This document shows positions 1,560 to 47,596 of a stretch of DNA of 64,000 bases, one piece after another (position 1 is the stretch's first letter; every line of letters starts with the position of its first letter). The notes under the pieces are model-generated. The model was not told the DNA's origin. It ran no database searches and saw only the letters and a program-made list of their open reading frames with translations. The stretch is from NCBI GenBank assembly GCA_030704615.1, contig CM060731.1:78058001-78122000 (forward strand), read 5' to 3'. A program made the position numbers and the translations under genes. Source of the DNA: Takakia lepidozioides. Its lineage: Eukaryota > Plantae > Bryophyta.

Positions 1560-2700
1560 GATCCCTGGTATCAGAGTTGGCCTTCTGTGCAACAAGCTGT
1601 TCCGCATGTAATATCCCAGGTCACTGCACGGCCTAATTCCATGCTTTTGACGGTGCCAAGAGAATACAGCAAGCATGGAGGCCGGTAATGCAAAAACAGT
1701 CGGTCCCCGACAATGCTATCGGTAGCCTCAACCTCAAATCTGCTCAGGTGATACTCAGATCAATCGGGAAAGAGCCCGGGCGCGTGGAAGGAGGCCGCGA
1801 ATGGCAACTGCGCTCCCTAGTGTTGCTACACAACGTAACCCTTCTCATTTGCAGTATTTAACTGCACATTGTGGGTGCACTTGCAGTGCTGTACACACAC
1901 AGAGAAACAGGAACATGCCAACCAAAAATGGTATGAAATATCAGATCCATACCAGTCAAAATACCACTTGTTCAATGTCAAGCTGCCCATAAACATCCGT
2001 AGCACTTATCGCCCTAAGGCAGCAACTGGTCGCTCGGGGCTATCCACAACATGCATGAGTAGCTGGCTTAGTCAGGTTAGGTTCTCACACAGGCCTGCAG
2101 ACTCATATGTCCACTTGCTCAAGAAGTCCTGATTCTCGACTTCCACCAACAAGCACGCTTCTGGAGAGTAAGCTGCACTCAATCAAGCACTAGATATCAC
2201 GTTGCATGGAACTGCAGAAACCAAACTACATCTAGCTCATGGGAATAGAGGCTTCATAGAAAGGCTTTAGAACTGTTTATTTCAATTTCGTTGGCGATGA
2301 TTTGTTGACCCGCGCTGGGTGAAGGTTTCTCACGGTAAAATGTTAATATATCCTGACTTCGATGTAGGAGGATTCTTTAATCGATAGTTTGGAAACTGAG
2401 GACATGTACAAGGCTGCCATGTTGGGATTTGAGGTAGCAGATCAAGAAGATGAAAGTTAAGCCAACGCTCTTAGTTGTACTTCTACAAATTTTGCAGTTC
2501 TAAAGGTATGCCAGATTTCTACCCCTTAACCTTCCCTTCCAGCCTTGTCTGAAGTCATATCTTTATCGCTGACACTAGTTACATCTCTAATTCCTCACCG
2601 GTTGACCCACTGATCTATGGCTAGTGAAGGCTCTCCCAGGATTATTAAAGGAGATAACTTACAATCATAGAATACATGTAGCTGTGCCCAGTGTTTGCAG
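1560..2700. pseudogene. Rearranged duplicate fragment of the RPL37a/FMP32 locus at 62.2-63.65 kb
   Basis: ~1560-1995 (minus) matches ~63190-63650; ~2040-2240 (minus) matches ~62700-62900; ~2248-2700 (plus) matches ~62218-62680, including the RPL37a exon text gtagcagatcaagaagatgaaagttaagccaac. Confidence 0.85.
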
Positions 2701-3128
2701 ATCGCCTTCCGGAGGGTACTTATAAGAGAATCTTGAGTAGAAAAAAGGAGATCTCTTCATGACCGGACCATATGGTAGTCTGTGCAGGGAGTGCAGAGTG
2801 AAGACGAGCACTTATATTCCTCATTTTACGTGGTCATATACTTTCATCCATATCAATCCCCGCAGCCACAGAATGACATCATACATATCCAGGAATTGTA
2901 ATGGAAATCTGGTTCGTGGGGCTCAGGTATTCGCACGTGTATAGGATGTGGCTTGAGGCGCACTAAGACTGGGTGACTGATTGGCAAGTTCGGCTGGGGA
3001 TTCGTATTGGCGCGGCAGATGATGTGGAGGTGATAGGGAGTCCCGAGAGTTTGGAAGGGGAGATACAGAAATTTGAGAGCGGGGGAAGGAAAAAGATTTG
3101 GAGGTAAAGGGGGAGTCGGGGGAGGAAG

Positions 3129-9100: not shown

Positions 9101-9618
9101 ATGAGAAAGGTCGGACAAGTTTTCAAGATTGACTTACGTGTATAAGCTCATGCAGTTGGAAAGTACCGACGATTGTTGCATGGGGGGAGGCGGACAAATA
9201 TCTTCCAAAGTCAGAAGCTGAAAACTTTGTGAAGAGTAATCCGGACTCTATGAAGTTAGTGATGCTTGACGGAGCTGGACATATGCCGCAAGAAGATTGG
9301 TAATCAGCTCCTCCCTCTGCCAGTAAGGACCTGAAAAAGAAATGTAATGAAATGAAGGACAAACCTAGGAAGAAGGGAAAAATAACTGCCAGTAAAATTT
9401 TCAAGGGAGTGTTTTCCTTCTTGCTGGTAGATATTTGCCTAGCGACATGAGAAGTATTGTACTGCCATTACAGGTTTCTGCCAGTTTCTGAGGATGAGAT
9501 GAGCACTTTGCTCTTTTTCAATGAGTTACTTCCATGAAAGGCGGCAGTTCTTCTCACACAATGCTTGTGTTTCTGCAGGCCTGAGAAAGTAGTAGAGGCA
9601 CTAAGAAAAAATTTCTGA
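3129..9618 (+). CDS. Plastid-targeted alpha/beta-hydrolase (haloalkane dehalogenase-like fold, Arabidopsis At1g52510-like), about 11 exons
   Basis: Exons near 3129-3434, 3861-3936, 4553-4638 (IIFLHGAPLQSYSYR), 5422-5515 (APDWLGFGFSEKP), 6452-6528, 6997-7124, 7566-7637, 7809-7879, 8388-8463, 9156-9299 (GAGHMPQEDW), 9579-9618 (PEKVVEALRKNF*), with GT-AG boundaries. Confidence 0.92.
4220..4375 (-). repeat. Short LINE/SINE 3'-tail copy plus (GA)n microsatellite
   Basis: gagagaaatgaaatgaaatggt...ggaaagctcatagagcttatgggacaaaatggaa recurs at 5865-5960 and, inverted, at ~5215-5332. Confidence 0.7.
4800..5332 (+). mobile_element. 5'-truncated non-LTR retrotransposon (LINE) remnant in an intron
   Basis: Degenerate ORF2 C-terminus HSL*IETGRL..LQRTDGLYPTC..EIETEEHFFFHCPY (typical LINE C-terminal Cys/His finger), then a 3' tail ending tcatttcatttctctc. 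Confidence 0.7.
5865..5990 (-). repeat. Second minus-strand copy of the same LINE/SINE tail
   Basis: Near-identical to 4230-4330. Confidence 0.7.
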
Positions 9619-10412
9619 GCTTGGACATGTCCAGAGGTTCCCAGTGTCCTCATTTTGGAAAGGTCACCCCCGTCAATATTCTATTTGTAACCCACAGTGT
9701 AGTCTAATAACAGTCACCCATTTCCCATGTCTTTGTAAACAATCCATGTTGGTCTACAAATAGGGGGTTCATTTCAACCTTTCTACTACCCCTGAAGGAG
9801 TGAACACGGAACAGCAGCAGCCCATTAAATATGAAGATACTGCCTAGACTGAGGAAGTTCTCACGAGAGAGGATGCATTGGTTACTGTAATGCTTTTCCA
9901 TATATCAAAATTGTTGTACTATTTGTTGTTGGCCTAAAGGCAAGGAAGGGTAGAACGAAAGTCCCATAGCTCATTGGCAGCCCACCAATTCCCAGCAGCA
10001 ACATTGAGCATTGCCAGAGGTGGTATTGACGGGAGATGACAAGTTCTTGGTTTTCGAGTGGAGAAAAGGAAGAAAAGGAAAGGAACAAACTCCCTTTCCT
10101 CAAAAGCAAGAGTGGGCAGATGAAAGCTCGTGGATCCATCATTAGGCTAACAATCTTTTTCAAATCCATTCTGGGTGTACAATAGTGTACAATAAATCCT
10201 AGAGCTTTGCACCTGTCTGCCAGGAAAAAATGAGAAAGATATGTGTGTGAAGTTGTGTACATGGCACTGACTCGCTGGAAACGTGAACAGCATGCCCACA
10301 AGCAAGTGGTAGGTATTTGATTTCGCTTTCCAGCAAGCGACAAGTACTAACCTAGTTGTACAAGACCTCGGTGTACGTGTTCTCTGTTCCTTGTGAGGTC
10401 GCTGCTCGATAC

Positions 10413-11334
10413 CAGTGTGCGGATAAATCATTTACCCAGATTTATCCGGCGGGTACATCAGGTAGTGAGTAGTAAGGGTAAATGATTTACACGGGTTGGC
10501 CCATTTCATTACCCTTACACTTACCCTTCAGCCAGGTAAATAATCTGAGATACCCTTACCCCTATGAAGGGTGAATAATTTCCATATACCCTTTACCTGC
10601 TGATAAATATAATTTTTTGGAAGGTAAATAGCAAAAGGGTAACAAAAAACTCTTCTTCATCCTTAAGTAGAGGGTCTTCACTCAAGGGTCCCTTGTGCAA
10701 GCATCCTCCCTCTATCACCATCTCCAAGGGTGTACCATTATCGTGCACCACATAAGGGGGGCATACCATTGTCCTGCATACCATTTAAGGGCTTCATCTC
10801 TATGAAAAGCTTTGGGTTTGTGTCAAGAGTCACTTTGCTTAGAGTGCAGGGGAGGGGAGTTTCCAATGCTATCAACTCAACCTGGATGATCTTGGAGGCA
10901 CTAGTTTTGCGGATGAGACACTCTTACATACATGGTCTTATAGTTTGGCTTTGCTTGATTATTATTTTGGTGTGAAGAAACATGCTCATGATCATCCCTC
11001 ATATTATTCACAACATATGATACAATCAGCCCCATACTAAACCAAAAAATAGAGCAAAACTTGATTACCTTAATTAATTAGTTATGTTTTTTGAGGTGAG
11101 CATAACAAACAAAATAAACTATATATCCTTCAATGTATCCTTTATTTACCCCACGAATATAGAAAGGGTAAATCATTTATCCTTACCCAATATTTAAGCC
11201 TTTACCCTTTATCCGTAGGATAAATAAAGGGACATATAAATAATTTATCTTTACCCGGAGGATAAATAATCATTTGATTTCTATTTATCCTTACACGGAG
11301 GATGAGCAAAAATCTACTTACCCACACAACACTG
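10413..11334. mobile_element. Degenerate hAT-type MITE
   Basis: Starts cagtgtg, ends caacactg; both ends are rich in tttaccc/tttatcc/gggtaaa subterminal motifs; no coding capacity. Confidence 0.55.
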
Positions 11335-11975
11335 GTCAATCGGCCCGGGTATGTGCAAGGGTATAGGTAAGGGTATGCTAGAACCAACCCGGCTGGTATG
11401 TCATGCAGCTTATACCCCGGATCTTTGTAGAACTTAGGGTTTAAGGTTCCAAACATACCCAAAACTGATACCATACCAGTCACAGTAGGTGGCGAAGCAA
11501 TACTACAATTAAGAACAATACTTAATGGGGGAAAGTTTCTATATGGGAGGGGTAGCAGGTATGGCATACAATGGTCAACGTACAAGGTACAATGTGCAGG
11601 ATTTCTTCAGTTTTTGTCATGGCAGCCAGCCCTTCGCCCATTTGTTACAATCTAACCTTACAATACAAAGACCTTCACTAATTCATGAGCAGTACAAATT
11701 AAAAGAGTATGATAAATTAAATAGAGTATGATGATTGTTGGGGTATAACATACCATTGTACACGCTGCCCCAATATGTCATTTGAAGTTTTGCCATACCC
11801 ATGCCTAGGACCAGGGTGTCCCAAATTTGGAAATACCCATACCCATCCTATAACCTACCCTAGCCACTTCTAATCTACACTGGGCCTTACCAGTTGGACC
11901 GAACAGCCAAGTTGGAGATACCAGGACCAGTCTGGTATGCCAAAATGGACATACCAGTACAACACTGGTCAATAC

Positions 11976-12381
11976 CAGTGTTGGTCTGGTATATAGGTGA
12001 AGGACTGGTATAAAGTACTGGTATATGCACTGGTATTAGATACCAGACCAGTCTGGTATCATTTGGGAGAATACTTGGTCATATACTCGACCAGGCTGTA
12101 TGTGTATTATACTAATTTATGTATACATATGCCTACATACTTGTACTTATGTATATTTAATTGATACTTCCCATGTGATAAACTTCAATATGGCTTTGGA
12201 ATGATACCAGAATTATATCTCATACCAGCTGGTGTTGTGGTCATGATACTCATACTCATACCAGTATCTGGAAAAAAAATACATCCACCATTATATAGAC
12301 CAGACTGGTATAAATTTTTGTGATACGTCTGGTACCAGGACCAGTCTGGTATGTCCTGAACCTGATACCAGAACAACACTG
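11976..12381. mobile_element. hAT-type MITE, 406 bp
   Basis: TIRs cagtgttggtctggtat / ataccagaacaacactg (16 of 17 match); 8-bp flanks gtcaatac / gtcaatag; many ataccag/ctggtat subterminal repeats. Confidence 0.75.
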
Positions 12382-13004: not shown

Positions 13005-13615
13005 GATCCACATGAATGCGAGATTGTCATGGCTCCTAGTAGATGGTGCCCAAACTAGTTCTTGCAATTCCGAGCCACTTGAAGGCCAATATTGCTACCA
13101 GTTGATCTGGATGAAGAACCTCAACTAGCAATAGACGCCCATCACTCTCTACAAGCCTTGGATGAACTATACTACTCTACCAAAATCAGGCATTTGTACA
13201 GCAACTTCAGTCCACACACCTGTACCAATGTCACAAGCCATCAAGTGGTGGCCTTTCTCTCGTATATAAAATAGAGCAAAGAGAGTAGGCCCACATATCA
13301 CACTTCCTGAACAATACGCATCACCTTCTGTGGGCATCTTTCCAGTCTCGGTCCAACACTCGCAAACTGAGTCCTAGATATCTGTTCTCCAACGTCTCCT
13401 CCCGTCGTGGCTGCCAGACATGACAAGGACCTTGTAGGTGTTGCTGCATCTATCCACAGTCATATTTACTGTCTGCACATCGACGAAATGTGTTGAATTG
13501 TCGTGAAGCAGGGCAGGCAATTGTCTGGAACTATTCGACAGAGGATTGGACACAATCCATAAGCCTTTGTCCTCGACCATTACGCAAAATAAGCCTCCAT
13601 TGGCAGCACAAACGC
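13005..13615 (-). pseudogene. F-box/kelch paralog fragment lacking the F-box domain
   Basis: SVCAANGGLFC..WRTDI*DSVCECWTETGKMP..; collinear with ~110-810; in-frame stops. Confidence 0.88.
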
Positions 13616-13659
13616 TGGTTAGTTTGTATGTTTTGATCATTCTCTATTCCTCAATACAT

Positions 13660-14005
13660 AGTGCTAATCACTAATCATTTCCATTAGTCTCAAGTATATA
13701 ATTCTAATGTCTGGCAAACAGTGAGATCATTGGACCTAGTATCCATGATGCTGCCTCATGATCAGTTATATATCAATCATGGTGATAGGATAGTTGAAAC
13801 TAATGCCCTGGACAGAGGAGGAAGCTTTTGAAGCTGACTCACATCTGTAAGAGCTGATCACTAACCATTAGTCTTAAGTATATAAATCAAATGTCAAGCA
13901 AAACTATGAGATCATTGGACCTATTGTCTATGCTACCTGATCACTTATCAATAATGGCCACAATGATAGTTGGCAATGCCCTGGATGGAGGAAGCATTCA
14001 AAGCC
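13660..14005 (+). repeat. Diverged tandem duplication, two units of about 170-190 bp
   Basis: atcactaa..ccattagtct..aagtatata..gagatcattggaccta..tgccctgga..gaggaagc occurs twice in succession. Confidence 0.7.
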
Positions 14006-14021
14006 GGTGTGGATTCTTGAA

Positions 14022-14370
14022 TGTCAAGTTAAATAAGCACAGTGTGAAACTAACTAGAATAAAGCTAGTTATTTGTATTTAACACTTGGATTTAGGTCAA
14101 GTGTTAAATCAGGTGTCAAGTTTAGTTTGACACCTGAACTGTCTTATCTTCACGAGAGCGTCAGTCGCGCGGCTCATCTCTCTCGAGTTGAGCCTGCGCG
14201 ACCGAGCTCCTTCATGCTTAGAATTTGAGTGTGCTTATGTAGGGGTATAGGTTGTTGTGGGGTGGAGTCCCCATAGCTTGGGGTGCCCCTGGCTCGACTA
14301 TTATCTTAAAGAGTGATGTTGAGGGATTTCATGTTTCTTGTGTGAACAGTGCATTTCAAGCTTTCTATCA
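14022..14370 (+). repeat. 5' LTR segment B (349 bp)
   Basis: TGTCAAG...CTATCA; 5 substitutions versus 25664-26012 by eye. Confidence 0.95.
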
Positions 14371-16147
14371 CTCGAGAAAGATGACTCTATCTAGTTTCCA
14401 GTGCTAAGCTAGATATGATTTTTTGTTTTTTAAAGCATTATTATAATATAGCTTGGTCACGGGGAGCAGAACAGGAAGGCGGAAACCATTCGAAGTGTTG
14501 CTGCAGCAGTTCAAAGCCAACAATAATCGGCCCCAGGGATGCCCGTTTGTTTGAGGCTGGTGGAAGCATTCGCAGGGGTCGCCTACACATTCTCATTTGG
14601 AGTGTGCGCTGCAGGTAATCCTGTTGCAGTGGGGTCCCTGGTGTCAAACCAGGCTGTTGCGGTGGTAGGAGGGTCAGCGTGGCCGCGGCGGATGGTTTTG
14701 CTGCAGAGCTCGCGATTCCCAAGCGCGGTGGAGCAATATGTTGAAATTCCAGTAGTGCAAGCGTCATGAATGTGTGTTGCAGGTCAATTGGGTGGTTGAT
14801 GGACTTGCGCCTCCGTGCAAGAATCTGAGAGAGACACAGATTACTTGCCATGGCAGCTACATAAGGGAGAAAGTGACCTCGAGGATGAATATAAGAAGGG
14901 ATATGCTCTGGAAGTCGCTTGCGCTCCTCAATAATTTCTAACGCAGAGAGTAAAAACAACGTGTCATTTTGGTACCCGGCATGAAGACGATAGAGGTCGT
15001 GGCTCTGGCCTGACTCCCTACAGTAAGTAGGAAATATATCCTACTTACAATCCCGGGAACAAATGGGTAAGAGCTTCGAAGGCTGGCTCAGATCGTTTGA
15101 ACTTTGGATGGTCTGCAGACATATTTCTTGTTTTCGAGCAATGTGGCAGACAGCTGCTCCTTGGTTTTGGTTACGACCTCCACCACGACCTCTGCCTCCT
15201 CTACCTCTCTGGACTACATTGCCTCGTCCTCGGCCACCATTGTTCCCTTGGAACTGGCCTGCTGAGAAGGTGGATGTGATGTCCATGTAAGCATTAGCTA
15301 TTCACAACCTACAACGTCTTCGTAGTCCATAGTCGACTATTTGCCGTTCTCTTTCTGCCGCGGTTGCCAAATTGACCCGGCGATTAGGAGGCTGAAGCTA
15401 TGGCAGGAGTTGAGACAGGCCATGACGCACCAGCCATGGTAGTGTCTGAAGGGAAGACTGTTGCAGTTATCATGGTCGGTGGTCCAACAAAAGGCGATCC
15501 AAAATCTCTTTGGTAGGTGGTGTGGAGCCATTCAGGCTATGAACGTGCGGCTCGAACTTTACCAGCCGATCCATGACCCGGCATGGGGGCTTATTGCACC
15601 ATTGGGTGTAGATGCTCGGATTCTTGCAAGGACAGATAATCGGGGGAGGCGAGAAGGTCGTATGCTTTCTCCACTTTCCCTTGCATCTGGACCCCGGAGG
15701 CCATCTCCATAACAAACGCCCTATCACCTTTTAGGAGTGCAACTCCATCTTGCGCAGGGTGTAGTAGTTCGATTTTGAGAACTCTTGACCAAAGCTAGCT
15801 GCCATGCTTCGTGACGCCGTGAGTGGGGCGTATAAGACCTTGCCTAGAGGGATATTCATTTCCTCAAGTCGCTTCCTGGCACGACACAAGGCTTGCTCTT
15901 TGGGCATATCGGTGTCACCATCGAACCTGGTGAGAATGTGACAGGGAGTAGCAGACAGGCCTGAGTTCCAGACAATTGGGGTCGAAGTTAGCACCTCACC
16001 GAGCGATTTATCGCACCCATGAGCAAGTTGTGTATGGCTCCTCTTTCGCTCCATCTAGGATGGGTTCCACGCCGAATGCCACTGGTTCAATGCCCTCTGC
16101 CCTATCGACCTGACAGGAGGCCAGAGCCTCGTACCTTCTAATTTCCT

Positions 16148-16318
16148 ATGAACTTCGTTCCTGCACCTGCGGAAAAGGGTGTCGCAGGGTTTATGATCAA
16201 CTCTCTTATGGGTGGAGTCTTTGCAGCTGTGTCTCAGACTGCTGTGGCTCCCATCGAGCGAGTGAAGCTTCTCACCCAGAACCAAGATGAAATGCTGAAA
16301 TCAGGTCGCCTTGCAGAG
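16148..16318 (+). pseudogene. AAC: Captured fragment of mitochondrial ADP/ATP carrier
   Basis: [52 protein letters not shown] matches the plant AAC first helix ([28 protein letters not shown]). Confidence 0.9.
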
Positions 16319-17986
16319 CAGTTCACCAGTGTTTGAAACACCTGTAGGTGAAATCCAGGGAATCTGTGAAAACTACATGGACGTGTTGGGAACTCGTAGG
16401 TGACTTGGGAACAGTTTTTGATGGCGAGAACGTTTTGGGTGTGAAAAATTAAAAGAAATTCGTTCTTTGATCTAATTTAAATTAGATAGAGCCTGTTTGG
16501 CCATAGCTTTGGCCTACCAAGGCCGTTTGACCCAAAACTTGCACAGGGACCTACAGAAAGGGGAAATCTACCTATTTAGACCTGGTTTTAGTTTTTTGGA
16601 CTATGCTAAAAATCTATGGAATTTTTTGAGTGTGAGTGCGCTATGAAAGATCCACAATTCTGTTTCTAGAACCTGTTGTGGTCTACATGAGAGACAAATC
16701 TGTGGATGTCCTCCTTGTATGGCTGGGGGAAATGATGACGTAATTGAAGGGCAGGTCTCTTCTCTTAGCCTGTGCACCCAAGGGGACAAGATTTATGTTT
16801 CCCAAGGAACTCAGACTGATTTGAGTGGAGAACAGTTGGACGAGTTGATTGCATACTGGGAGTCAGGCATTAGCAGTAGACAACAAACTGCTGTAGTTGG
16901 CGTTGAGGGCCTCAATATTGCTTTGGACAGTCAAAACTCTGTTGGAGCCAGCAGTTCTACAGCTGTAGGTGAAATACCAAAGTGGGTGAAAGCTAGGCTT
17001 GGAACACAGCCAAAGACAGCCCCGGGGACCAAGGTGTTCAGCCACAAGGCCGTGGTGTACTGGAGCAGAGGAGCAGGAGCTACACAAGTTTGTGCAATCA
17101 GACATGGTTGCAGCCGGACACGCTCTACACGAGGCAACCACGAGCGGGGGTTCATTAGCAATGAAAAGTTTGCTGCTTAAAGGAGATGCAGTCATTCGCA
17201 ATGAGGACACCCGCAACCGTCTCAAAGCTTTCGAGTTGAGAGACTGTCAGACCCTACCTTTATTTTCTTTAGTGTTCAGTGAGCGGGAGATAGGGGAGTA
17301 CTGTTTTGTCTCTACCTGGCAGAAATAGGAGGAGGGTTGGTTAGAGCGAGCTACTGTAGCTTGGGACAAGGTTAGTGGCAGGTTTCTGGACATAGATATA
17401 TCTCCTACACTTTACCATCATGCAGAGCGAGGCACTTTGAGAGAAGTCTGACAGTTGATAGCATAGATCAGGATTAGATCTTGCTTGGTCGGGCCTCTAT
17501 TCTTCCCCTCCCTCTTGTTACTATTTCCATTACTTTGTACTTGTAGTTGCCAAAACCTCTCTTGGTGGAGGCCAGTCAGTCCGGGGTTTTGGGTTGGGAT
17601 ATTCTGCAGGATCAGCATTGCAGATGGATTTTGGTGTGGGGGTGTTGATGTTTTGATTTCTTGTGTTTGGATCCCCCCCAACACCTGCATGCTTGACTGT
17701 GCGCCATGTTGGTTTTGTGTGGGCGCTTGCTTTCATAGGGATTAGGCCGGATTTGATCACCGGTCAATCCTAGAGTATGCTGTCGGTGGTGAGGCTGGAG
17801 TGATGACTAGCAAGACCATCAGTGTTTCTTCTATGGTGAGACTGGGTTGATGACCAGCCAACCATAGGAGTTCTTGCGGTGGATGCAGGTGCAGGTGCCC
17901 TGAGCCACTGGGATATGACCCTTAAACTGCAACAGGTGCCTACCCGTGTCACTATTAGAATTAGTACTAGAGCCTTATAGTGTCAC

Positions 17987-19430
17987 GTGGGGGAGGTGCA
18001 CATTGTGAGTGTCCTCACGGAGTTACCCAAGGGTTTTGAGGGGAGTACGGCTACAGGCAGTAACAGTGAGAGTGGGTTCACCAGACGAGGTGTTCGTTTC
18101 AGACCACCTTCACCTCCACCCTCAATTAGTGCAGAGTCAGACACAGACTCGGAGGCTTCATCAACAGGTGTGCAGTTTCATTCGCCATTGTTGTGGGACG
18201 ACATGGAGGAGATGTATGGAGCTACCAAGGGGCCTCGTAGGTACTCTGGAGCTGTGGGCACAATCGAGTTGGATGACTTTATCCAGGAGTTTGATAGCTG
18301 GTGTGATTTGCAGCAGATGCGCAATCCACAGCTATTCACCCCATTCATGGCGTGGAAGGGACTGTTCCAGCATTTGGAAGGCCCGCCTATGGACGATTAC
18401 CACGAGTTCAGGCGAGAACATGAAGCATAGATTGAGGAGTGGAGGATGTATTGGTCACCTGACTACGTCTCCATTACTCGAGGCACGACGCGACCAGTAG
18501 CTGCATCAGTACCAATATCTCCCACTGCCAGCACTAGTAGTGGAACAAGTAGTGCCGGTACTTCTGCAGGTGGTACCAGTTCAAAAGGTGCTACTACTCC
18601 TCCTGCCACGACTACAACACATGTGCCTAGATTCAACCCGGTGGTGAAGTTCTTCCAGGAGTTGCGGAGGAACTACCAAGGTGTACGGACAGAGAAGCTG
18701 CGAAGTTTGCAAGACTTCCAGCGCAAACCCAGTGAGAGCCTGCGAGAGGCGTACACTCGTATGAGGCGCTTGATAAGTGTGACCCAAGGGGTTACTGAAG
18801 CTCAGGCAATCCAGTTTTGGTATGGAATTCTGGACAAGGAGCTCAAGAGAAGGGTGCGAGATGCAACCCTGTTACAAGCAACCCAACCCACATTAGCAAA
18901 TGTGTTTCTGCTGGCTGAGCGGATTGAGCTCAACATGGTGGAGGAGCGAGTTGTTACCATTGGATTTGGCAAGGACATGCCTGCACGAGGCGCAGCTGCC
19001 AGCCCACAAGCACAAGGGACTGCCCAATAGCGTGGTCAGGGGGGCAAGGTTTCTCAACCCAAGTTCCATGGAGCTTACAGGGGACCTCAAGTGCAGAGGC
19101 CCGTGGTATCTTTTGCAGGCCAACAGCAACCAGGGGTGATATGTTGGACATGTGGAGGACCCATGTCAAGAGAGATTGTCCAGAGAGTGGCAAAAGGCCG
19201 GCACAAGCACAGCCTGCACAGTTGCAGTGTGGGCATTGTGGCAAGTATGGGCATGGAGATGCCCAGTGTTATGACTTGCATCTTGAGTTGCGCCCAGGCC
19301 AGTTCCAAGGGAACAATGGTGGCCGGGGGTGAGGTGGACCAGCCCAGAGAGGACGAGGTGGCCGGGCACGAAATGCAGGCCAAGGGCAAGCCCAACATGG
19401 CCAAGGACGCGGAGGTCAGGGTGTTGACCA
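17987..19430 (+). pseudogene. gag: Retrotransposon gag with two CCHC zinc knuckles
   Basis: YSGA..ELDDFIQEFDSW, FQRKPSESLREAYTRMRRL, QFWYGILD; knuckles CWTCGG(P)HVKRDC (1-nt deletion) and CGHCGKYGHGDAQC; stops at 18428 and 19028. Confidence 0.85.
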
Positions 19431-19434
19431 AAGC

Positions 19435-20829
19435 ATGGCTAACCGGCTTCAGCAGCTAGAGCAGAGGCTCGCTGCCATGGCTACAGCTCAGGTGGTACCG
19501 ACTCCCAGGCGGGATGGTCCACCTCCTGCTCCTGAGGGAGGAGATATGGGAGGCATGGGATTCATGTGTGGAGCAGCACTACCACTAGTGCAGGTGGAGT
19601 CTGCTGCAGCCATGACTCGAGGAGCAGCACGAGTTCCTGAGCCACGAGGTGCAGAGGTGGAATTGGACCTACAGCGTGGGGAGGCAAGCCGTCAGGCGAG
19701 GCTTCCTCAGTCATTCACATTGGCGGAGACAGTATCGACGCCATCCATGGCACCTAGTTCTCGCCCGACTGTTACCGATGCGGAGGTTACTATGCCATTG
19801 GGGAGAGCTACACGTGCAGCACTGACACCTGCTACCAAAGCTAGTGCAGCCGGTGTGTTATTGGGGGCAGCCACCTCTATGTGTCAAGCCCCATTGTTCT
19901 CGGCAACCATGATTGCGACGCCGGGGGTAAGACCAGCTGCAGTGTTCAGACTAGCAGCAATACTCTGTGAGAGTGGGGAGGTCACTTCATCTTCTGCGGA
20001 GTTAGTGGAAGGTGTAGTGGCAGAGGGATCCTCGGATTTGAGGGTCAAGACTGCCACGGCTGCGCCATGGCAAGCTGCAGCTGCCAGGTTGACGGAGCTG
20101 CCAGCTAGGCCAGCCTTTGAGCGCGCCATGGTGACACCTGGAGTTGTCTTGTTAGACAACCAGGATGACATTTTCTCTTTGAGTGGACCGGCAGGCAAGA
20201 AGTACCGGCCACTGCGGGTCTTGTTGGACTCGGGAGCTCAGCCACTGATGTTGGGCAGAGCTGCTATTGCAGGTTTGGGCCTCATGGAGGTGGATATGGA
20301 GCCTTGTCCTTTCCAGATACAGACATCTCTGGGAGGATCAGAGCAGGCTCGGGGCATGACACGGCGTGAGTTGGCCATTAGACTGCAGCCGGATCATCCT
20401 ATAGATGGCTCAGTGATGCAAGCCAAGGCCATTGTGACAGACGCGGTCTCTTACGATGTCCTCGTTGGTGGAACAGTGTTATATCCCATGGGCTTCATCC
20501 TGGACTTTTGGGAGGAGCCAGCATCCTACAGGCCTGGATGGCAGTCAGGGGATGGTCGTCATGCACAACTCCCTGTGACATTCATTGGGGGTATTGCGGC
20601 TGCCCAGCGGGGCAAGATGCCAACACTAGCCACCTTTACAGTTGCAGTTAGTTGGCTTGGAGAGTTGCTGGAGGGCAATGCCCATGCAGAGGATGTGCCA
20701 CCTCCAGCAAAGCAGGATGACATGCATGGTACGGCGGAGTTGTCTGCCATGGTTGCTCACACTCCATTGTGGGTACGAGCAAGGATTTGCAACAGGCTGC
20801 TGATAGACGGGTACAACAAGCCTGGGTAG
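19435..20829 (+). CDS. Polyprotein segment containing the aspartic protease
   Basis: VLLDSGAQPLMLG active-site motif and downstream YDVLVG motif; frameshift near 20770. Confidence 0.85.
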   Translation: MANRLQQLEQRLAAMATAQVVPTPRRDGPPPAPEGGDMGGMGFMCGAALPLVQVESAAAMTRGAARVPEPRGAEVELDLQRGEASRQARLPQSFTLAETVSTPSMAPSSRPTVTDAEVTMPLGRATRAALTPATKASAAGVLLGAATSMCQAPLFSATMIATPGVRPAAVFRLAAILCESGEVTSSSAELVEGVVAEGSSDLRVKTATAAPWQAAAARLTELPARPAFERAMVTPGVVLLDNQDDIFSLSGPAGKKYRPLRVLLDSGAQPLMLGRAAIAGLGLMEVDMEPCPFQIQTSLGGSEQARGMTRRELAIRLQPDHPIDGSVMQAKAIVTDAVSYDVLVGGTVLYPMGFILDFWEEPASYRPGWQSGDGRHAQLPVTFIGGIAAAQRGKMPTLATFTVAVSWLGELLEGNAHAEDVPPPAKQDDMHGTAELSAMVAHTPLWVRARICNRLLIDGYNKPG

Positions 20830-20936
20830 AGGCCTTCGTACCGTCAGGAGAAGAGGAGAGTGCGGTGATTGCACCAGGACCACCTCAGTTGTCGCCATTG
20901 GACACCACACCTCTTATGTGGCAGTGCCCGGATAAA

Positions 20937-21890
20937 GGCATATGCCTTCTGGACTTGTTTGGCGGGATCAGCACTGGATTAGCTGCAGTACTGCAGGCAG
21001 GTGTACGAGTTTGACATTACCTGTATGTGGAGAGGGATGAGACTGCACGACGCGTCTCACTGCGCCATGTTGCTCAGTCGGTACAGCAGTACCCTGAGTT
21101 GTTGTCAATGTCTGCAGTGTGTGGATACCAACAAGCCTTGCCAGCAGACATTTCGTTGCTGGGGGCGCAGGATTTGGAGCAGGTTGGCTCCATTGATCTG
21201 GTAGCGGCAGGTTGGCCCTGCCAGGGGCATTCATCAGCCGGACATGGCAATGGATTGCAAGACTCGAGGACGGGTCTATTTTGGGAGATGGTGCGGGTTT
21301 TGCGCCACTTGCAGCTTCATCAAGTTGTATCTCCAGCATACATCTTAGAGAATGTGCCACTGATGGGTGATTATCGGGCCAGGGTGATGGCTAGTCTGCA
21401 TCAAGTCCGGTCGTGGCTTGGGTCAGCAGTGCTGCTGGATGCAGCTGCAGTGGGGTCACGGGCTCATCGTCCACGGCTATGGTGGACTAACTTGATGTCA
21501 CCCGCACTGCTCAAGCGTGCATTTGATGGGGTGCAGCGGCCAGCACACCTCACAGTGGATAGCATTTTGGACACAGTCAACGTGTGAGACACGATGACCG
21601 TTCGCCTTTGGCAGTGGTCAACAGGGTGGGTCAACCACGAGCATCATTACCTACACTGCTCAGCTTCCCAGGATCCCATGCTTTTTCGGGATGGTGGACC
21701 TGGCCTCTTGTGGGATAGCCAGTTGCAACAATTAGTGGAGCCCAATGCTAATGAGCGCGAGCGGGCGATGGGTTTTACCACTGGTACCACGGCGGTGCCA
21801 TCTCTTTCTGAGGCATCACGTCGTCAAGTGTTGGGGCAAACAATGGATCTCAATTGCTTGACCTGGATTATCAGCTTGGCTATAGCTGAG
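20937..21890 (+). pseudogene. Retrotransposon-encoded C5 cytosine DNA methyltransferase, DNMT3-like
   Basis: Motif I LDLFGGISTG, II YVERD, IV DLVAAGWPCQ, VI ILENV, VIII AHRPRLWWTNL, IX ERERAMGF..GTT, X RRQVLGQ, in canonical order; TGA at 21012 and two frameshifts (~21575, ~21685). Confidence 0.93.
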
Positions 21891-22308
21891 CAACGCAGAG
21901 TGCGAAGTACACTTCCCTTCATGGTCTCCCTACCTACCGAGACGGTATAGGCAGCGAGTGGGGGCGAGCAGATAAGGACCACGAGGTGCAGGTCGCATCC
22001 ATGGCACACGTGGGAGGTGCTCGAGGTTCCGAAGGAGTTGGTAGCCAAGGCGGCGGTGATGGATCAGGTTAGGGATTTTTTTTCGGGTTGAGGAGGTCCT
22101 CAAGGATGGGATGATGGGGCAGGGTGAGACATTGTCACTGACAGAGGAGGCAGTGGTCACTGCTCAAGAGGTTGCAGCATAGCAACCACGGGACGCGTCT
22201 TCTACCTCTAAGCCTGCTGGACTCAAGGTTGCAGTCACGGAGGATAACTGGGAGCCTGATGTTGGACCTATAGTCAGCGGAGGAGAGAGATGACGTATAC
22301 GGCGGTTC

Positions 22309-23751
22309 TTGAGGGCTTACAGGAACTGCTTTGCCTTCAGTTTGAAGGACTTAGGAGCACTGAAGGGTCAAGAGATTCGCATTGAATTGGCTACTGACAC
22401 GCCAATCTTTCGGAGACCCTATAGATACAGTGACATGGAGAGGTCATTGATTCAGATGAGAACTCAGGATCTTTGGGAGGCAGGTTTGGTGGAGCTCTCT
22501 GGTGGAGAGTATGCTTCAGCCACAATGATGCCAGCCAAGAAGGATGTCTATGGCAATTGGACGGAGAGACGTATGTGCGGTGATTACCGGCCTGTAAATC
22601 GTCAGACCAAGTCCGATAGGTATGCCATGCCGACACCAGAGGAGATCTTTGATGCCATTGGGCATGCCAAGGTCTTTAGCACGTTGGATTTACGATCCGG
22701 ATATCACCAGTTGCCGATCAAGGAGGTGGATAAGCAAAAGACGGCATTCTGGGGGATCAATGAGCACGGGAATGATTGCCTATACCAGTGGCGGTTCTTA
22801 CCATTTGGGCTTAAAAACGCTCCTGCTGAGTTTCAAAGAGTCATGGACAGGATTTTAGTAGGGGTGGAGTTTGCTCGGTGCTACATAGATGACATCATCA
22901 TCTTTAGTGTTACGGTGGAGGAGCATGAGAGACACCTTCAGGGGGTATTTGAGTGCTTGAGGGCGCACGGATTGAAGTTACATCCGGGAAAGTGCAAGTT
23001 TTTCCACAACCAGATTGAGTATCTAGGTCACATGATATATCCTGGAGGATTGGGGGTACAGCAGACTAAGGTAGAGTCCATTGCACAAGTTCCACGCCCC
23101 ACGGATGTGAGCCGAGTTCGAGCTTTCATGGGGTTAGCAAACTATTATAGACGGTTTGTTAAGGGATTTAGTGCCATTGCAAAGGCTCTAACCAAGCTGA
23201 CCAAGGTGGACCAGGAGTGGCAGTGGGAAGATGAGCAAGAACAAGCTTTTCAAGAGCTCAAGGCGAGGTTGACCTCGGCGCCCATCTTAAGACGGCCTAT
23301 TAGGGGGCGTCCTTTTCAGCTGCATACAGATTGGAGCATGCTGGGGCTTGGAGCGGTGCTCACATAGGTGGATGATGAGGGAAGAGAGTTCGTAGTGGCT
23401 TATGCTAGCCGCTCGAACAACATTGCAGAGTCTAAATATAGCTCATATGAGGAAGAATGCTTAGCTGCAGTGTGGGCCGTGGCACACTTCAGGTGCTATC
23501 TATACAACAATATCTTCACCCTTGTCACGGATCACCAACCACTCAAGTGGTTGATGGAGTCAGACAAGCTTACGGGGAAGCTTGCACGGTGGGCACTCAT
23601 CCTTCAAGAATATGACTTTCAGGTTGTGCATCGACCGGGTTTGGTCAATCGCAATGCAGATGGGTTGAGTCGCAATCCATGCACGAGCCAGCAGGATGAC
23701 ACTAGAGCTCGGTGGCATGGTGAGACGGACGAGGAGATGGTGCCCGGATAG
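22309..23751 (+). pseudogene. pol: Reverse transcriptase and RNase H
   Basis: RMCGDYR, LDLRSGYHQ, LPFGLKNAPAEFQR, YIDD; RH motifs TDWS..GLGAVL, ECLAAVWA, TDHQPL, NADGLSR; TAG at 23365 and 23749. Confidence 0.97.
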
Positions 23752-23775
23752 CATGCATCTGCATTTCTGTGTATC

Positions 23776-25100
23776 TTGGCAGCGGAAGGCCAGGTTGGAC
23801 CTGCAATAGGGATGACTGTAGATCAAGTGTCTGAGGACCCTGAGGCCAGCAATGAGCAAGGTGGCGCCAAAGATATACATGAGGATTCAGTTGTGTTGGA
23901 CTACCTCCGCACTGGAGACACTGCAGCCACTGTGACTGCCAAGGAGAGGGATCGGATCCTACAACGAGCCAAGAGGTTCAAGTGGGAGGGGACACACCTG
24001 CTCCGAGTGTGGGAGGATGGTCGAGTGAGGATTGTGCCTCACCCAACACAGCGGGCACGGTTAATACGGCATGCCCATGAGGAGTTGGGGCATTTTGGGG
24101 TGCGACGCACTCATAGCCTACTGCAGGGGCAGTATTGGTGGCGTGGTATGCACACAGAGGTGCAACAATTTGTGGCTAGTTGCATGGTGTGTGACAGGGT
24201 GCGTGCTTCATTCAACGCCTCTACTCCACAATTGCACCCTCTTCCGATCATGGGATTGGGCTACAGGTGGAGTCTTGACTTCGCAGGGCCGTTGCCACTG
24301 ACCATGCGCCACAACAAGTACGTGTTGGTGATGGTGGAGCACTTCTCCAAGTGGATTGAGTTGGTTCCATTGCCTGATAACGCTACTGAGGGAGCTGCGT
24401 ATACATTCTTGGATTGTGTGCTTAGCCGATTCGGTGCTCCAGCTGAGGTACTCACGGACCAAGGGAGAGAGTTCTTGGGGGAGTTTCAGGCTTTGTGTGA
24501 CAAGGCCTTGATAGACCACCGCACCACTTCTCGGGATCATCTTGAGGCCGATGGCTTGGCAGAGAGAGTTGTTCAGACAGTAAAGAGGGGTTTGCGCAAG
24601 TATGGCTTGCAGAAGGGACACCTAGGAGATTGAGACCTTCAGTTACCCTGGTTAGCCATGGGCTACAGGTTCAGCAATCAAACATCACTTACCTCCTTCT
24701 CACCATACTTTCTTCTCTTTGGCCGAGAGCCGGATTTGCCTACATCCATTCGCAGGGAAGCTGCTACAGTTCTTAACCTTGACGATCCGGACGTGTGGGC
24801 ACGTGCATATGAGCAGCGTGCAGAGTTGTTCAAGAAAGTCATGCCCATGGCTTTCGAGAACTTTGCCATTGCACAACACCGTTATACGTTGAGGTATGCT
24901 ACCATACGTGGTGGGGGCTATCGTCCTGGGGTTCGGAGATTCAACCCTGGTGACTATGTCTATCTGCAGCAGACTGCTCCTACGACCTTGGATGTGACTG
25001 CATGACATGTTATTTTGAGGGTTCGAGAGGTCTTCTCCTCAGGCGTCTTGGTCTTGGAGGGTCGGGATGGCATAACTTTAAGGACCATGTGCGTAATTGT
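23776..25100 (+). pseudogene. DDE integrase with HHCC zinc-binding domain
   Basis: HEELGHFG..CMVC; LDFAGP, TDQG, GLAER; SPYFLLFGR; TGA at 24631. Confidence 0.95.
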
Positions 25101-25164
25101 GCACCATGTCACCTTCCGAATGTCGATGGCAGGATTGACCCAAACCTGGCAGTGGTATCTGCAA

Positions 25165-25316
25165 GTTTGAGGGGCATGTTGTGTGGGTTTACTAAAGGGG
25201 CAGCCACCATGCTGGTGTGTGATCGATGCTCTAGAGGTTGGCATATGGGATGCTTGACTTCACCTCTTAAGATGGTTCCGGATGGGGATTGGTTATGTCC
25301 ACAATGCATTGGATAG
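25165..25316 (+). CDS. C-terminal PHD finger of the polyprotein
   Basis: (G)MLC..MLVCDRCSRGWHMGCLTSPLKMVPDGDWLCPQC fits the C4HC3 PHD consensus; the first Cys is mutated to Gly. Confidence 0.9.
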
Positions 25317-25576
25317 TGGGAGTTGATACAACCATAGGAGGCTAACAAGAAATGCAAGGCCAAGCTACTGGGAGACCTTGAACACACGAGATCCTGGCTC
25401 AAGTTCACAGATTGCAAGACGGCGACTAACGATGGGGCTACTCTTGTACCCGGCCTCTTGGTCTTTAGAGTTTGAGTACAATAGGGACAGTGATAGAGGA
25501 CTTAGTACGGTTGTGGCTATTACATCTTGTAGCTATCTGGAGTTAAAGGGACCTATCCACCAGCTAGGGGGGCGAT

Positions 25577-26012
25577 TGTGGCAGACTACTTTATTGTGCA
25601 TATATGTGTGGTGTGGTTTGGACAGCGATGTAGTTGTGTAGCGATACGTATGCGCACGACAGCTGTCAAGTTAAATGAGCACAGTGTGAAACTAACTAGA
25701 ATAAAGCTAGTTATTTGTATTTAACACTTGGATTTAGGTCAAGTGTTAAATCAGGTGTCAAGTTTAGTTTGACACCTGAACTGTCTTATCTTCACGAGAG
25801 CGTCAGTCGCGCGGCTCATCTCTCTCGAGTTGAGCCTGCGCGACCGAGCTCCTTCATGCTTAGAATCTGAGTGTGCTTATGTAGGGGTATAGATTGTTGT
25901 AGGGTGGAGTCCCCATAGCTTGGGGTGCCCCTGGCTCGACTATTATCTTAAAGAGTGATGTTGAGGGATTTCATGTTTCTTGTGTGAACAGTGCCTTTCA
26001 AGCTTTCTATCA
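25577..26012 (+). repeat. Complete 3' LTR (A 25577-25661 + GC + B 25664-26012)
   Basis: Begins TG immediately after the purine tract and AT (ggggggcgat), ends CA. Confidence 0.92.
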
Positions 26013-26013
26013 T

Positions 26014-26098
26014 TGTGACAAACTACTTTATTGTGCATATATGTGTGGTGTGGTTTGGACAGCGATGTAGTTGTGTAGCAATACGTATGTGCACGACA
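26014..26098 (+). repeat. Second copy of LTR segment A (85 bp), displaced to the 3' terminus
   Basis: 81 of 85 identical to 25577-25661; all four differences are G>A or C>T. Confidence 0.95.
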
Positions 26099-26338
26099 TG
26101 AATCATAGCTGCAAGCTAAGTTAGTAGCAATCTTTATCCCACATCATCAACTACATTTCAGATGGTAATTACCATGCATTACAAAGTACTCCACAAAGTG
26201 TTCCGAAAAAACCAACCATTTGGTCTCCTTGAGAGCTATGCTTGAAGAGCTGTGCATGAACAACACGGCTTCAAAATTCATGAGAAATGTGTGGGTTTGA
26301 TTGAACTACAGGGAAAAACTCTTGCAGCAAACAACACT

Positions 26339-29300
26339 TCAAATTGAAATTTTCTGCCCAAGCTTAGTCTGTTGTATCTCTTGAAGAACAAGGGCAACCA
26401 GTTTGTGCTGCACATCTAGCTCCTTTGCGAGACGATGGTCATCCACATTATGCACCTCAAGTGACACCTGCAAAATAGATTTCATTGGATCAGTGCTGTA
26501 TGTGCGCAGTTAGGGAAGGAAGTTATCTTTTTGGATAGCTGTTGGCATAGTAGCATTTTCTGGAATCGAATTGAAGGGAGTTTATCATAAACAAAAAACA
26601 CTTAGAGCCAATAAAACTGAGAGACTGCATGCACCAACCAGACTATTGTCTTGTGCTCACGTTTCAATCTGTGCACAACCCATAAGAGTGTCTTTTACTC
26701 AAAAGACCAAGAGAAAAACATGCCGTCCCCTCACTCTTCCTTTTCTCTCCCTGTGCAGGTACCCTCTGTTCAAATGGCAACCTTAGTGGAAGGGAGAAGT
26801 TTGGCCTGCTCAACATCATGTGACCAAGTGCCACAGTGCACACATATCTTGGCAGATGATGAAGACACTGCATCCAGCACCTCCTGCTTGTAGTTTTGCA
26901 GCCAGGTTTGATCTTTGCCTGGTCTGATGGATGATGTGCTCAGATCCACCTGTACAAACGAGTCAATCCCTCAGCTTGAAGACTCAAGATTCCTGTTTAC
27001 TCTTAATATCCCCCTGTATTTGCAGATCTCAAACTGTAGAGGAAAGGTCCGGCCCAAGATTCAGCCTTGGCTGAGCCTTACCATGTCCAATCAACCATCA
27101 GTGGACATGAGTCACCATGAGCAACCCATTCCATCAACATTGTGGTTGCTTCCGGATTGCATCCATGGTGCGTACATGCTCTAGTTGTTCCTGCATTGGT
27201 TCAAAATAGAGCTAGGACGAAATCCATGTCCCTCCCTCGTTTAAACCCCTTGAACTGCTCTCTTTCCTCTCTTTGACACACACCAAAACAGACGAGCATG
27301 AACTCATGTACAACAACTATTTGGGGTGGAGAATTCAAGTAAACCTGTGGGCAGAAGGCAATGACGGAAGTCGCAAGGGGAGAGAACAAGAGAGCTGCAC
27401 TTGCACCCATGGAGTCACCAAGCATTATCACATGTCTGTACGGTTTCAAAGCCATATGTAACTGGCTTCGGTAGTAGGACCCCAATGCCAAATGCCCAGT
27501 ATCTGCAGATTCCTGCCCCATTGAAGACACAGCTTTGCATTCACTAAACAACTGCGCGTCACTTGCAATACTTTCTTCCTGCCGCTCCTTGTGTGTGTAC
27601 CAGGAGCGTTGGCTGTCCACAACATAGAGTATGTCAAAGGCAGAGATCACCTCTTTTGCTTCCATCTCAGCCTTTGCTCTTCGCAGCACCCCTCCCCTGC
27701 TCACAAAGGTAATGTGATGTCACAGTAGGTCTAAGGAAAATAACCGTACACAGAAAGTCTACAGTGAACCCGGGTTGGCATTCATATGTTCTGTACTTTC
27801 AGCATCCAATATAATGAGGCGACAAGAACCATTGGACTCTCGCTGCTGGATCAAAAGTCTCAGCTTAATTGGAAATGCAGTGTGGATCTCTCTGGTTCCT
27901 GGGAGGCCCATGACACACACCACCTGGGGTCCAGAAGTGGAAACATGGCCGTAATGAGAGTACAAAGAAAGTTCATCAGCTGAAATTGAAGTCTCCGCTA
28001 GATCACAGGAGTTGCGAGCATAGGTAAGTTTAGACAGAACTCACCAATTGGGCACACAGGGGGCACTTCCAAAAGCAACAACAACTACATCTGCTCTCTC
28101 CCCCTCGTCCCACTGCTTAAGCTGCATAATAACACACACAAGGCCAAATTTTTTTACTGTTAGAATGTCTGATGTTAAAGTCCACTCAGGAGCAAATCTT
28201 ACAACTAGGAGATTGATTAGTCATTGCGATCCATGCTTTGGAAGCCCGGCAGGTTGAAGGATTGGCCATTTCCAGTGGAAATGATGGTAAAGACCCATGT
28301 CTGGGTTTCTTTTTTGTGCTTGATGATTTCTTACTCATGGGAGCTTACCACCCACCTTAAAATAGCCTCCTTGGCTCCTTGCATCACCCGTTCCAGATAT
28401 TTCCGAGACAGAGACCACCTTCTTCAATGTATCCAAAATCTCTCCTGGAAGTTTCTGCAATTTGAAGAGAACAATCTTACTGAAGCAGAGAGAGAATGAG
28501 AAGAGAAACAGACATAAGATAAGGGCTTACCTCCAACTAAAACTGTGCAATAGAATCCTTAAACCTTAATAACCCAATTCCAATAAATTCGACTAGGTTT
28601 AGCCACCTTAACCTAAAGTCAGAAAGAGTTGGCACAGAAGTTTGAGAAGAGTAAAACTTATGACATTTTGGTGCACATGCTACGATAAACAGGGGAGTAG
28701 GAGACATGATGTTCCTCCCGGAGTGGCCACTCTTGTTGGGTCTTGATGGTTATCAAAGCAATCCTATACTGGAGGGTGTCACACAGACACATTCAAACTT
28801 GAATTAGGTTAGATCACAAGGAGTACCACATCGGAGCTGATACCACAAGCTTTGAGCTGAGTAAATGATGGTAGCATCTCCCACAAACATTGGCCTTCCA
28901 AAGGGTTGCTCTGCTCAAGTTAACCACAAATCCATTTGAAAAATTGTCAGTGGGGCCTTCTTTGGAAAAACATCTATTGTTTCTCACCATGCACTCTGGA
29001 GACACCCTCTTGTAAGTCTCCCATAGTAGTGAGATCAGCTAATGTCTCCAGCACATTTCACAAGCACGCATGCTGCTCGAGCATGTCTCACCAGTTGCAG
29101 CATCAAGTCCGCATCCATCCATTTGAAGTAAAATAGACCAGAAATAATGAAGTTCAATTAAATCTTCCATCCACCTTCGCCACTGAGTGAAGTTAAGGAA
29201 CATAGGAATCAAGAACACCTTCCGAGAAAAAGTCGCAAGCAGCCCACCTCCAGCCATACATATGCAAGCTTCTTCAAATTTGCCAGGCTCCTTGGAACTC

Positions 29301-47400: not shown

Positions 47401-47596
47401 TCGCCACTGTCCATTCTCATAACCCATCCGAGCCCTCCATTTTTAGGGCTGCAATTCAAACCTGCATCCCTGGCGCCTGCCACTTGCCAATAGCCGCGAA
47501 CGTGTACACTGTTCTCCTGGCACATTGTCGATCGTGTCTTGTACTGCGGTGCGTTTCTTGCATGTTCAGAAGCGTGTCATTTGTACTGTATAGGGC

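Follow-up and report, generated by a model that had tools for sequence, protein, structure and literature searches.

A DNMT3-like methyltransferase domain in a dead moss gypsy retrotransposon: a proposal for cDNA methylation before integration

Introduction

What would a DNA methyltransferase do inside the retrotransposon of a land plant? The question is raised by a stretch of 64,000 nucleotides from Takakia lepidozioides (contig CM060731.1), here called the window, in which a first-pass annotation had seen a cytosine methyltransferase between the protease and the reverse transcriptase (RT) of a gypsy polyprotein. The answer that we develop, and to which we give a somewhat better than even chance, is that the window holds a dead copy of a green-plant gypsy element whose DNMT3-like enzyme would be made at Gag levels, packaged, and used to methylate the cDNA before integrase cuts the junction of the element ends.

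Results

Architecture of the element and state of this copy

We begin by considering the element itself, which spans 14022-26098 of the window. Its parts are as follows.

14018..14021, +: target-site duplication on the left, TGAA, repeated at 26099-26102
14022..14370, +: split repeat A1, left element end, starts TGTC; 98.6% identical to A2
14371..16560, no strand: low-copy insert with captured fragments; contig depth far below that of the element body
15177-15261: inverted gag piece inside the insert (inverted repeat I3)
16208-16324: mitochondrial-carrier piece inside the insert (PF00153, E=6e-5)
17746..17775, +: conserved 5'-leader hairpin, loop hexamer TGATCA; 29/30 identical to L085
18203..19330, +: gag, broken (PF03732, E=8e-4); 75-78% to Marchantia P0007 in two blocks
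20110..20541, +: aspartic protease (LLDSGA); 56% to P0007; PF13650 weak in L085
20937..21893, +: DNMT3-like methyltransferase domain (motifs, PF00145, PDB profile ranking, Foldseek)
22180..22188, +: TAG CAA CCA, in-frame stop in CARYYA context, RT frame; same motif at the L085 ORF1/ORF2 border
22402..23037, +: reverse transcriptase (PF00078, E=3e-32)
23311..23673, +: RNase H (PF17917, E=1e-27)
24043..24717, +: DDE integrase, H2C2 finger and core (PF17921, PF00665)
25173..25310, +: C-terminal PHD finger, predicted reader of the unmodified H3 tail (PF00628, E=1e-9)
25566..25572, +: G-rich run resembling a polypurine tract, directly before B1; L085 and L086 have similar runs upstream of their junctions
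25575..25661, +: split repeat B1, ends GACA; 95.4% to B2
25658..25667, +: palindromic B1/A2 junction GACA-GC-TGTC, copy of the joined element ends
25664..26012, +: split repeat A2
26012..26098, +: split repeat B2, right element end, ends GACA
26099..26102, +: right target-site duplication TGAA

The window copy is a dead pseudogene. Its reading path crosses 11 stops, and the methyltransferase domain itself is interrupted by a stop at 21012 and changes frame near 21577 and again near 21682; the first-pass annotation was right that the domain is present and silent on this damage. At several of the frame changes the sequence of other contigs is different, so we take the changes to be lesions of this copy. 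In summed contig depth the element exceeds its flanks by a factor of thousands, which points to a large repeat family and is not to be read as a copy number. A 5009-base contig with a second organism label spans the methyltransferase to the PHD finger with 217 differences.

Two further family elements, L085 and L086, come from a genome scan that returned 32 loci. L085 is an intact relative that carries the domain, of the kind that the annotation had proposed to look for. In GTDB both contigs are assigned to cyanobacterial genome bins; their retrotransposons are those of a plant or alga. L085 is a 9285-base contig assembled as a 9158-base circle through a 127-base terminal overlap, by repeat collapse or as a true circle. 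L086 has a single ORF of 3265 residues at 122-9916 with the methyltransferase between RNase H and integrase (type II, below) and a hydrophobic stretch between protease and RT; a second ORF of 713 residues at 10033-12171 has no Pfam match. The methyltransferase domains of L086 and L085 are 37% alike. A metagenome scan with the single window protein finds 4 loci, all phage or bacterial methyltransferases; a viral scan with the alignment finds 80 loci, all partial, with a best E of 4e-14; and viral scans with the RT give no match.

Two non-coding parts of the element deserve a remark. The host-gene fragments in the insert at 14371-16560 suggest gene-fragment capture by a non-autonomous copy; a further piece, 15436-15495, resembles the N-terminus of a mannose-1-phosphate guanylyltransferase and has no Pfam match. 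The leader motif (17746-17775; L085 8500-8529) keeps 29 of its 30 bases where the other non-coding DNA of the two elements cannot be aligned. It folds into a hairpin in both, with z of only -0.9 (window) and -1.8 (L085), and its self-complementary TGATCA loop makes an RNA dimerisation (kissing-loop) or packaging signal possible. A scan of window positions 13500-26600, L085 and L086 against Rfam gives no match.

Identity of the methyltransferase domain

The C5 cytosine methyltransferase domain at 20937-21893 lies on the + strand without an intron and has its motifs in the canonical order: I (DLFGG), IV (GWPCQ), VI (ENV), VIII (HRPR), IX (ERERAMG) and X. The annotation's description of a complete, intronless motif set in the direction of pol is borne out, and the Pfam search that it proposed matches PF00145 at E=5e-13. 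Its placement of the domain also stands, with the protease motif LLDSGA upstream (~20221) and the RT starting at ~22402; the single uninterrupted Pol that it implied does not, for the domain closes a Gag-protease frame before a TAG in CARYYA context.

Which methyltransferase is it? A 16-row family profile run against the PDB ranks DNMT3A first (7e-24), followed by DNMT3C/3B, DRM (3e-15) and M.HhaI (8e-8), with bacterial enzymes and DNMT2 below DRM. An AlphaFold model of the homologue P0002 has a mean pLDDT of 80, and among the Foldseek matches listed for it (n=35) all are DNMT3 entries. The affinity to DNMT3 is thus a ranking by similarity, from profile and Foldseek, rather than a placement in a tree. 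Judged by sequence and predicted fold, the domain is confirmed as DNMT3-like and non-permuted, as the annotation had proposed in preference to DRM; a DRM origin is rejected on the motif order, which is not permuted, and on the PDB ranking, in which DNMT3 stands above DRM. The Pro before the catalytic Cys is replaced by Glu (WEC, not WPC) in 25 of 64 family methyltransferases.

Spread of the family and selection on the domain

A homologue search (E <= 1e-10, proteins of 334-2000 residues) gives 51 homologues. For twenty of them the species is named: 16 are from Marchantia, 2 from Calypogeia and 2 from Sphagnum, with no vascular plant among these 20. A HMMER search at 1e-30 gives 528 clusters, of which the best 150 are used; in all, 206 rows have the domain. 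In 42 it lies before the RT or after the protease (type I, as in the window) and in 94 between RNase H and integrase (type II), so that 136 rows are placeable and 70 are not. Of 10 type-I queries looked up, 3 receive the name Closterium, and of 10 type-II queries 1 receives the name Scenedesmus; Coleochaete is named for a relative with RT and PHD.

In the second of two methyltransferase trees, both of which contain element and phage rows only, the window groups with Calypogeia and Marchantia rows (SH-aLRT 99). The first of these trees omits 8 redundant or gappy Marchantia models, two thirds of the type-II rows and rows of fewer than 290 aligned residues; in the second the type-II rows are thinned again. 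The RT tree, which keeps about one third of the type-II rows and drops P0005, places types I and II together in a clade with support 1.0, the outgroups from animals and angiosperms lying outside it. The Klebsormidium nitens RT (P0084) lies on the branch of the window's RT with a support of 0.976; it is this RT alone that shares the clade, no row among those of the family being named as a K. nitens DNMT.

The catalytic Cys of motif IV, the Glu of motif VI and the second Arg of motif VIII are kept in 64 of 64 aligned rows. Between the window and L085, the one DNA pair compared, dN is 0.48 and dS about 3.1 over 275 codons, and with dS near saturation the ratio is to be read as about 0.15 or less. 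Against Marchantia the methyltransferase is 67% identical (with the frame-shifted stretch counted), the protease 56% and the linker 44%. The methyltransferase thus appears to be under purifying selection across the family.

Might the domain nevertheless be a one-off capture or a neutral passenger? The annotation had named both outcomes as refutations of its reading: sister elements without the domain, or neutral evolution. That the window copy is broken and carries captured host fragments would fit such a history. A single event is hard to reconcile with homologues that share this context in Marchantia, Calypogeia, Sphagnum, Closterium and Scenedesmus, and neutrality with the invariant catalytic residues and the low dN/dS against L085, so that we regard this explanation as scarcely credible.

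The stop codon between methyltransferase and RT

In the intact L085, a Gag-protease-methyltransferase ORF is followed by TAG CAA TCA and then by RT, RNase H, integrase and PHD, all in one frame. In the window the corresponding TAG CAA CCA lies at 22180, in frame with the RT, and the distance from the end of the methyltransferase to the start of the RT is 169 codons in the window and 170 in L085, the two domains being only 45% alike. UAG-CARYYA is the readthrough signal of TMV (PMC4132726, accessible text). Only 1 of the 11 stops on the window's reading path has the CARYYA context. TAGCARYYA occurs once on the + strand of the window (1 of 669 and 1 of 681 TAGs on the two strands), and since one per strand is expected by chance in 64 kb, the argument is one of position. 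Close to the TAG, the frame of the window changes at a T run (22076-22083) and a further stop follows at 22291, so the frame relation between TAG and RT is taken from L085.

DNA across the stop comes from these two elements, and the remaining support from proteins. Nine of the 51 homologues end 71-77 residues past the domain. In the fused bryophyte gene models the junction is shortened in 6 of 6 (9-110 residues, against about 170). Among the listed members of the L085 RT cluster (n=15), 9 are 1043-1044 residues long, and those listed and displayed begin at the position four codons past the L085 stop. The region after the stop folds better than shuffled sequence in L085 (z -3.3), with z +1.3 in the window. 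Distant type-I relatives have no stop: P0378 is one ORF of 2811 residues, and nine rows run from methyltransferase to RT unbroken. Expression at Gag levels is therefore not required family-wide, and the stop looks derived, since these distant rows are unbroken and the same is stated for Klebsormidium.

Split repeats and the palindromic junction

How would such an element integrate? Matching terminal LTRs are not found at the element ends in the window. The repeats run in the order A1 … B1-A2-B2, with A1 (14022-14370) recurring as A2 (25664-26012); A1 and A2 differ at 5 of 349 positions and B1 and B2 at 4 of 87. So few differences, against the many lesions of the body, suggest that the copy was already defective when it last moved. 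The element starts with TGTC, ends with GACA and has TGAA on both sides, a 4-bp target duplication; a 5-base duplication can also be read, which breaks the symmetry of the ends.

The internal B1/A2 junction is a perfect palindrome, GACAGCTGTC, that is, the two element ends joined across two bases. It occurs once each in the window, L085 and L086, thus in 3 of the 3 family elements with DNA, and in each of them lies downstream of the PHD finger and of the G-rich tract. It is absent from the other 114 loci (about 1.85 Mb), and the chance expectation for this 10-mer is 0.12 per 64 kb. The target duplication and the full end structure are seen in one copy, L085 being a collapsed circle and L086 being without both ends. 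By eye, no tRNA primer-binding site is seen after 14370, where the insert sits in the window copy.

In the integrase the second Asp and the Glu are separated by 34 residues in 66 of 66 matched relatives, the usual spacing in gypsy integrases being 35. Pfam finds no tyrosine recombinase in the ORFs of the window or in the intact L085 and L086. With a DDE integrase present and a tyrosine recombinase absent, an element of the DIRS/Ngaro/PAT kind is rejected.

In vitro, foamy-virus integrase cleaves a palindrome at the joined ends, after the CA of each strand, according to the accessible text of PMC1180852, whose reference list contains titles stating that the circle junctions of MLV and foamy virus integrate poorly. 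By analogy, the integrase of the present family likely cuts the B1/A2 junction. A staggered cut after CA on each strand of the palindrome would leave two ends that are already 3'-processed, each recessed to CA with a 5' overhang of 2 bases, the form that retroviral integrases use in strand transfer.

The PHD finger

The closest PDB matches of the L085 PHD finger are CHD4, PHF12, UHRF1, KMT2C/D, KDM5A/B PHD1 and PHF21A, and none of 70 PHD matches has a Trp two residues before the His. A Trp at that position marks K4me3 readers, and we take the fingers of CHD4, UHRF1, KDM5 PHD1 and PHF21A to be readers of the unmodified H3 tail. From these matches and the missing Trp, the element PHD is predicted to read unmodified H3. 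The ADD domain of animal DNMT3 prefers unmodified H3 tails too.

Other features of the window

The 19 bases that end at the first base of the element (14004-14022) are identical to the L085 leader at 8367-8385, and the flank is single-copy by depth; the match may be what is left of an older relative, reflect a preferred target or be due to chance. A second pair of long direct repeats (372-819 and 13176-13617), 12.8 kb apart and 86-95% alike, lies just to the left of the element. Inverted-repeat arms about 12 kb apart bound 47113-59701, with 66-base and 48-base tandem repeats inside; the ORFs within resemble those of a decayed MULE/SWIM-type DNA transposon. An intronless reading frame for a cytosolic pyruvate kinase lies at 42682-44157 and is possibly a retrocopy. 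Its best named matches are Ceratodon (80%) and Sphagnum (79%), and in a tree of 37 rows, with no named hornwort, it falls on the side of the mosses, with seven unnamed rows, the split that sets off liverworts and vascular plants having a support of 100/99. Taken by itself the tree points to a moss host, or possibly a hornwort, in agreement with the annotation's land-plant assignment of the element.

Discussion

A proposed cycle and its alternatives

Combining these results, we propose a cycle for the intact elements. Ribosomes would very probably stop at the TAG-CARYYA in most cases, a minority reading through to make RT, RNase H, integrase and PHD. If read through, the stop would put protease and methyltransferase at Gag levels, with RT and integrase a small fraction; from the frequent stopping we infer that the methyltransferase would be abundant in the particle, in which the intact elements would package it. 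The internal B1/A2 junction would then template both ends in reverse transcription and yield a circle or end-joined cDNA, a step that we favour by a small margin over its absence. The enzyme may lay 5mC de novo on this cDNA, so that the copy would arrive marked like the transposon DNA of its host; we give this step no more and no less than an even chance. The PHD finger would finally tether integration to chromatin without H3K4 methylation. No footprint of self-methylation is seen, since CG depletion (o/e 0.51) is equal in element and host and CG/CHG depletion does not separate the two.

Two steps of this cycle have competitors in how the element is expressed and inserted. The TAG at 22180 might not be read through at all, the RT coming from a spliced or separate RNA or from a frameshift at the T run, and the frame change of the window lies at that run, 100 bases upstream of the TAG. 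The ORFs of L085, however, share one frame without a shift and have the same six-base context, and the region after its stop folds well where that of the window does not. A programmed frameshift as the main route is rejected, L085 having no T-run shift, and we hold the wider alternative to be quite improbable. As for insertion, the element might integrate in the ordinary way and without any cut at the junction: the cDNA would be linear, with ends restored from the internal junction and shortened by two bases. Or it might be an LTR element with a truncated 5' LTR. The G-rich tract stands directly before B1, as a polypurine tract stands before a 3' LTR, and a single full copy underlies the end structure. 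Truncation is disfavoured, because TGAA flanks exactly the start of A1 and the end of B2, A1 begins at the right half of the palindrome, and the Klebsormidium elements share the repeat layout (PMC5890265, accessible text); the linear route is untouched by these points, and the two together seem to us unlikely, though far from negligible.

What the enzyme acts on is the other point at which readings diverge. It could act in trans, released from Gag and entering the nucleus to methylate existing copies or other chromatin, so limiting its own family or silencing competitors. Gag-level expression would exceed the need of one cDNA, and self-limitation is listed as a possibility in the accessible text of PMC5890265; yet selection on a single element for a brake in trans would be weak, whereas the catalytic residues are invariant in 64 of 64 rows, and in 94 of 136 placeable rows the domain sits between RNase H and integrase, beside the domains that handle cDNA. 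Alternatively the target may be the end junction, or RNA or an RNA:DNA hybrid, instead of the bulk cDNA, methylation then controlling or protecting the palindrome. Methyltransferase, PHD and palindrome occur together in 3 of 3 elements with DNA and in both layouts, the palindrome holds CAG/CTG (CHG) sites, and the isolated Klebsormidium domain left yeast DNA unmethylated (PMC5890265), a result that its authors, in the text accessible, call inconclusive, the same text reporting CG methylation by SymbioDIRS-Dnmt3. Against these targets, fold and sequence are closest to the DNMT3 enzymes of DNA and far from DNMT2, no sequence-specific recognition domain is identified, and the co-occurrence may reflect shared ancestry only. 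We judge action in trans improbable and a junction or RNA target improbable to the same degree, and keep methylation of the cDNA as the working proposal.

A wider claim is more tentative, and we lean slightly against it: that these elements form an ancient order of retroelements in the green lineage, distinct from LTR and DIRS elements alike, whose range extends from chlorophytes to mosses and liverworts and which would combine gypsy enzymes, split repeats, palindrome cleavage, pre-methylation of cDNA by DNMT3, choice of chromatin by PHD and, in land plants, a leaky stop.

Precedent and significance

The annotation had named DNMT-bearing elements from Klebsormidium and dinoflagellates, correctly according to PMC5890265 (de Mendoza et al. 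2018, accessible text), which describes KnitGypsy-Dnmt3 from the K. nitens lineage as an element that combines gypsy domains with DIRS-type repeats. It knew of no characterised land-plant case, and the literature searched, as far as its text is accessible, likewise yields no report from land plants or chlorophytes. The word PHD is absent from the main text of PMC5890265, and the accessible parts make no mention of a palindromic junction, a target duplication, readthrough or chlorophyte members. Sarre et al. 2025 (PMC12344493) repeats the finding for 'streptophytes' and in its accessible text adds nothing on land plants. Element-borne DNMT3 in bryophytes goes unmentioned in the accessible parts of PMC6453930, PMC10952607, PMC11982613, PMC6317226, PMC9861306, PMC8566409 and a Marchantia sperm preprint; 'KnitGypsy' occurs in one paper only within the literature searched; and the main text of Neumann et al. 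2019 contains neither PHD, Marchantia nor Klebsormidium. The capture of a methyltransferase is already known; within the literature searched, four features appear to be undescribed, namely the spread over land plants and chlorophytes, the insertion of the domain at two positions, the leaky stop and the conserved palindrome at the junction.

Since Marchantia polymorpha, a genetic model with methylomes and mutants, has members of the family (16 of 51 homologues), the question of 2018, what a retrotransposon does with a DNMT of its own, becomes testable in a land plant. The leaky stop, if true, would put the enzyme at capsid levels, which would suggest that marking has to be dense or fast. The combination of split repeats, a DDE integrase and a conserved palindrome hints at a way of integrating that LTR-finders and current plant classifications could miss, and bryophyte annotations gain many DNMT3-like gene models from these elements.

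Comparison with known systems

The canonical Ty3/gypsy LTR elements share the DDE integrase, the TG...CA ends and the short target duplication, and differ in having two matching LTRs at the element ends. With Ngaro, PAT and VIPER the present element shares the order A1 ... B1 A2 B2 and an internal copy of the joined ends (PMC6681497, accessible text); it differs from them in its DDE integrase, TG...CA ends, 4-bp target duplication and gypsy-type RT. The likeness to foamy virus lies in the palindromic CA-NN-TG junction, at which a staggered cut would give a 2-base 5' overhang (PMC1180852, accessible text), but the junction forms there in 2-LTR DNA, whereas here it is hard-coded inside the element and its cutting is a prediction. 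To readthrough of the TMV type the link is the exact six-base context after UAG in two elements (PMC4132726, accessible text); here it follows Gag-protease-methyltransferase in a retrotransposon.

The DNMT3 enzymes of hosts (human DNMT3A/3B; moss PpDNMT3b, from the accessible text of PMC6453930; MpDNMT3b) share the motif order, the catalytic residues and the fold. Identity in structural alignments is only ~20-24%, and the element enzyme has GWPCQ or WEC at the catalytic Cys, has neither PWWP nor ADD, is intronless and is fused to Gag-protease.

The closest known system is KnitGypsy-Dnmt3. As far as the accessible text of PMC5890265 describes it, the two have in common the gypsy set of protease, RT, RNase H and integrase; an intronless, non-rearranged Dnmt3 with the key residues (at the level of the family, the window copy being broken); split repeats, A1 being followed by an A2 with a B on either side; and a DNMT under purifying selection. 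The DNMT there lies in the ORF of RT and RNase H, whereas here, in the window and L085, a TAG stands between them and they are joined only if it is read through. Because this same-ORF feature differs, we set the present element, whose host is a land plant, apart from the KnitGypsy-Dnmt3 family as a related variant.
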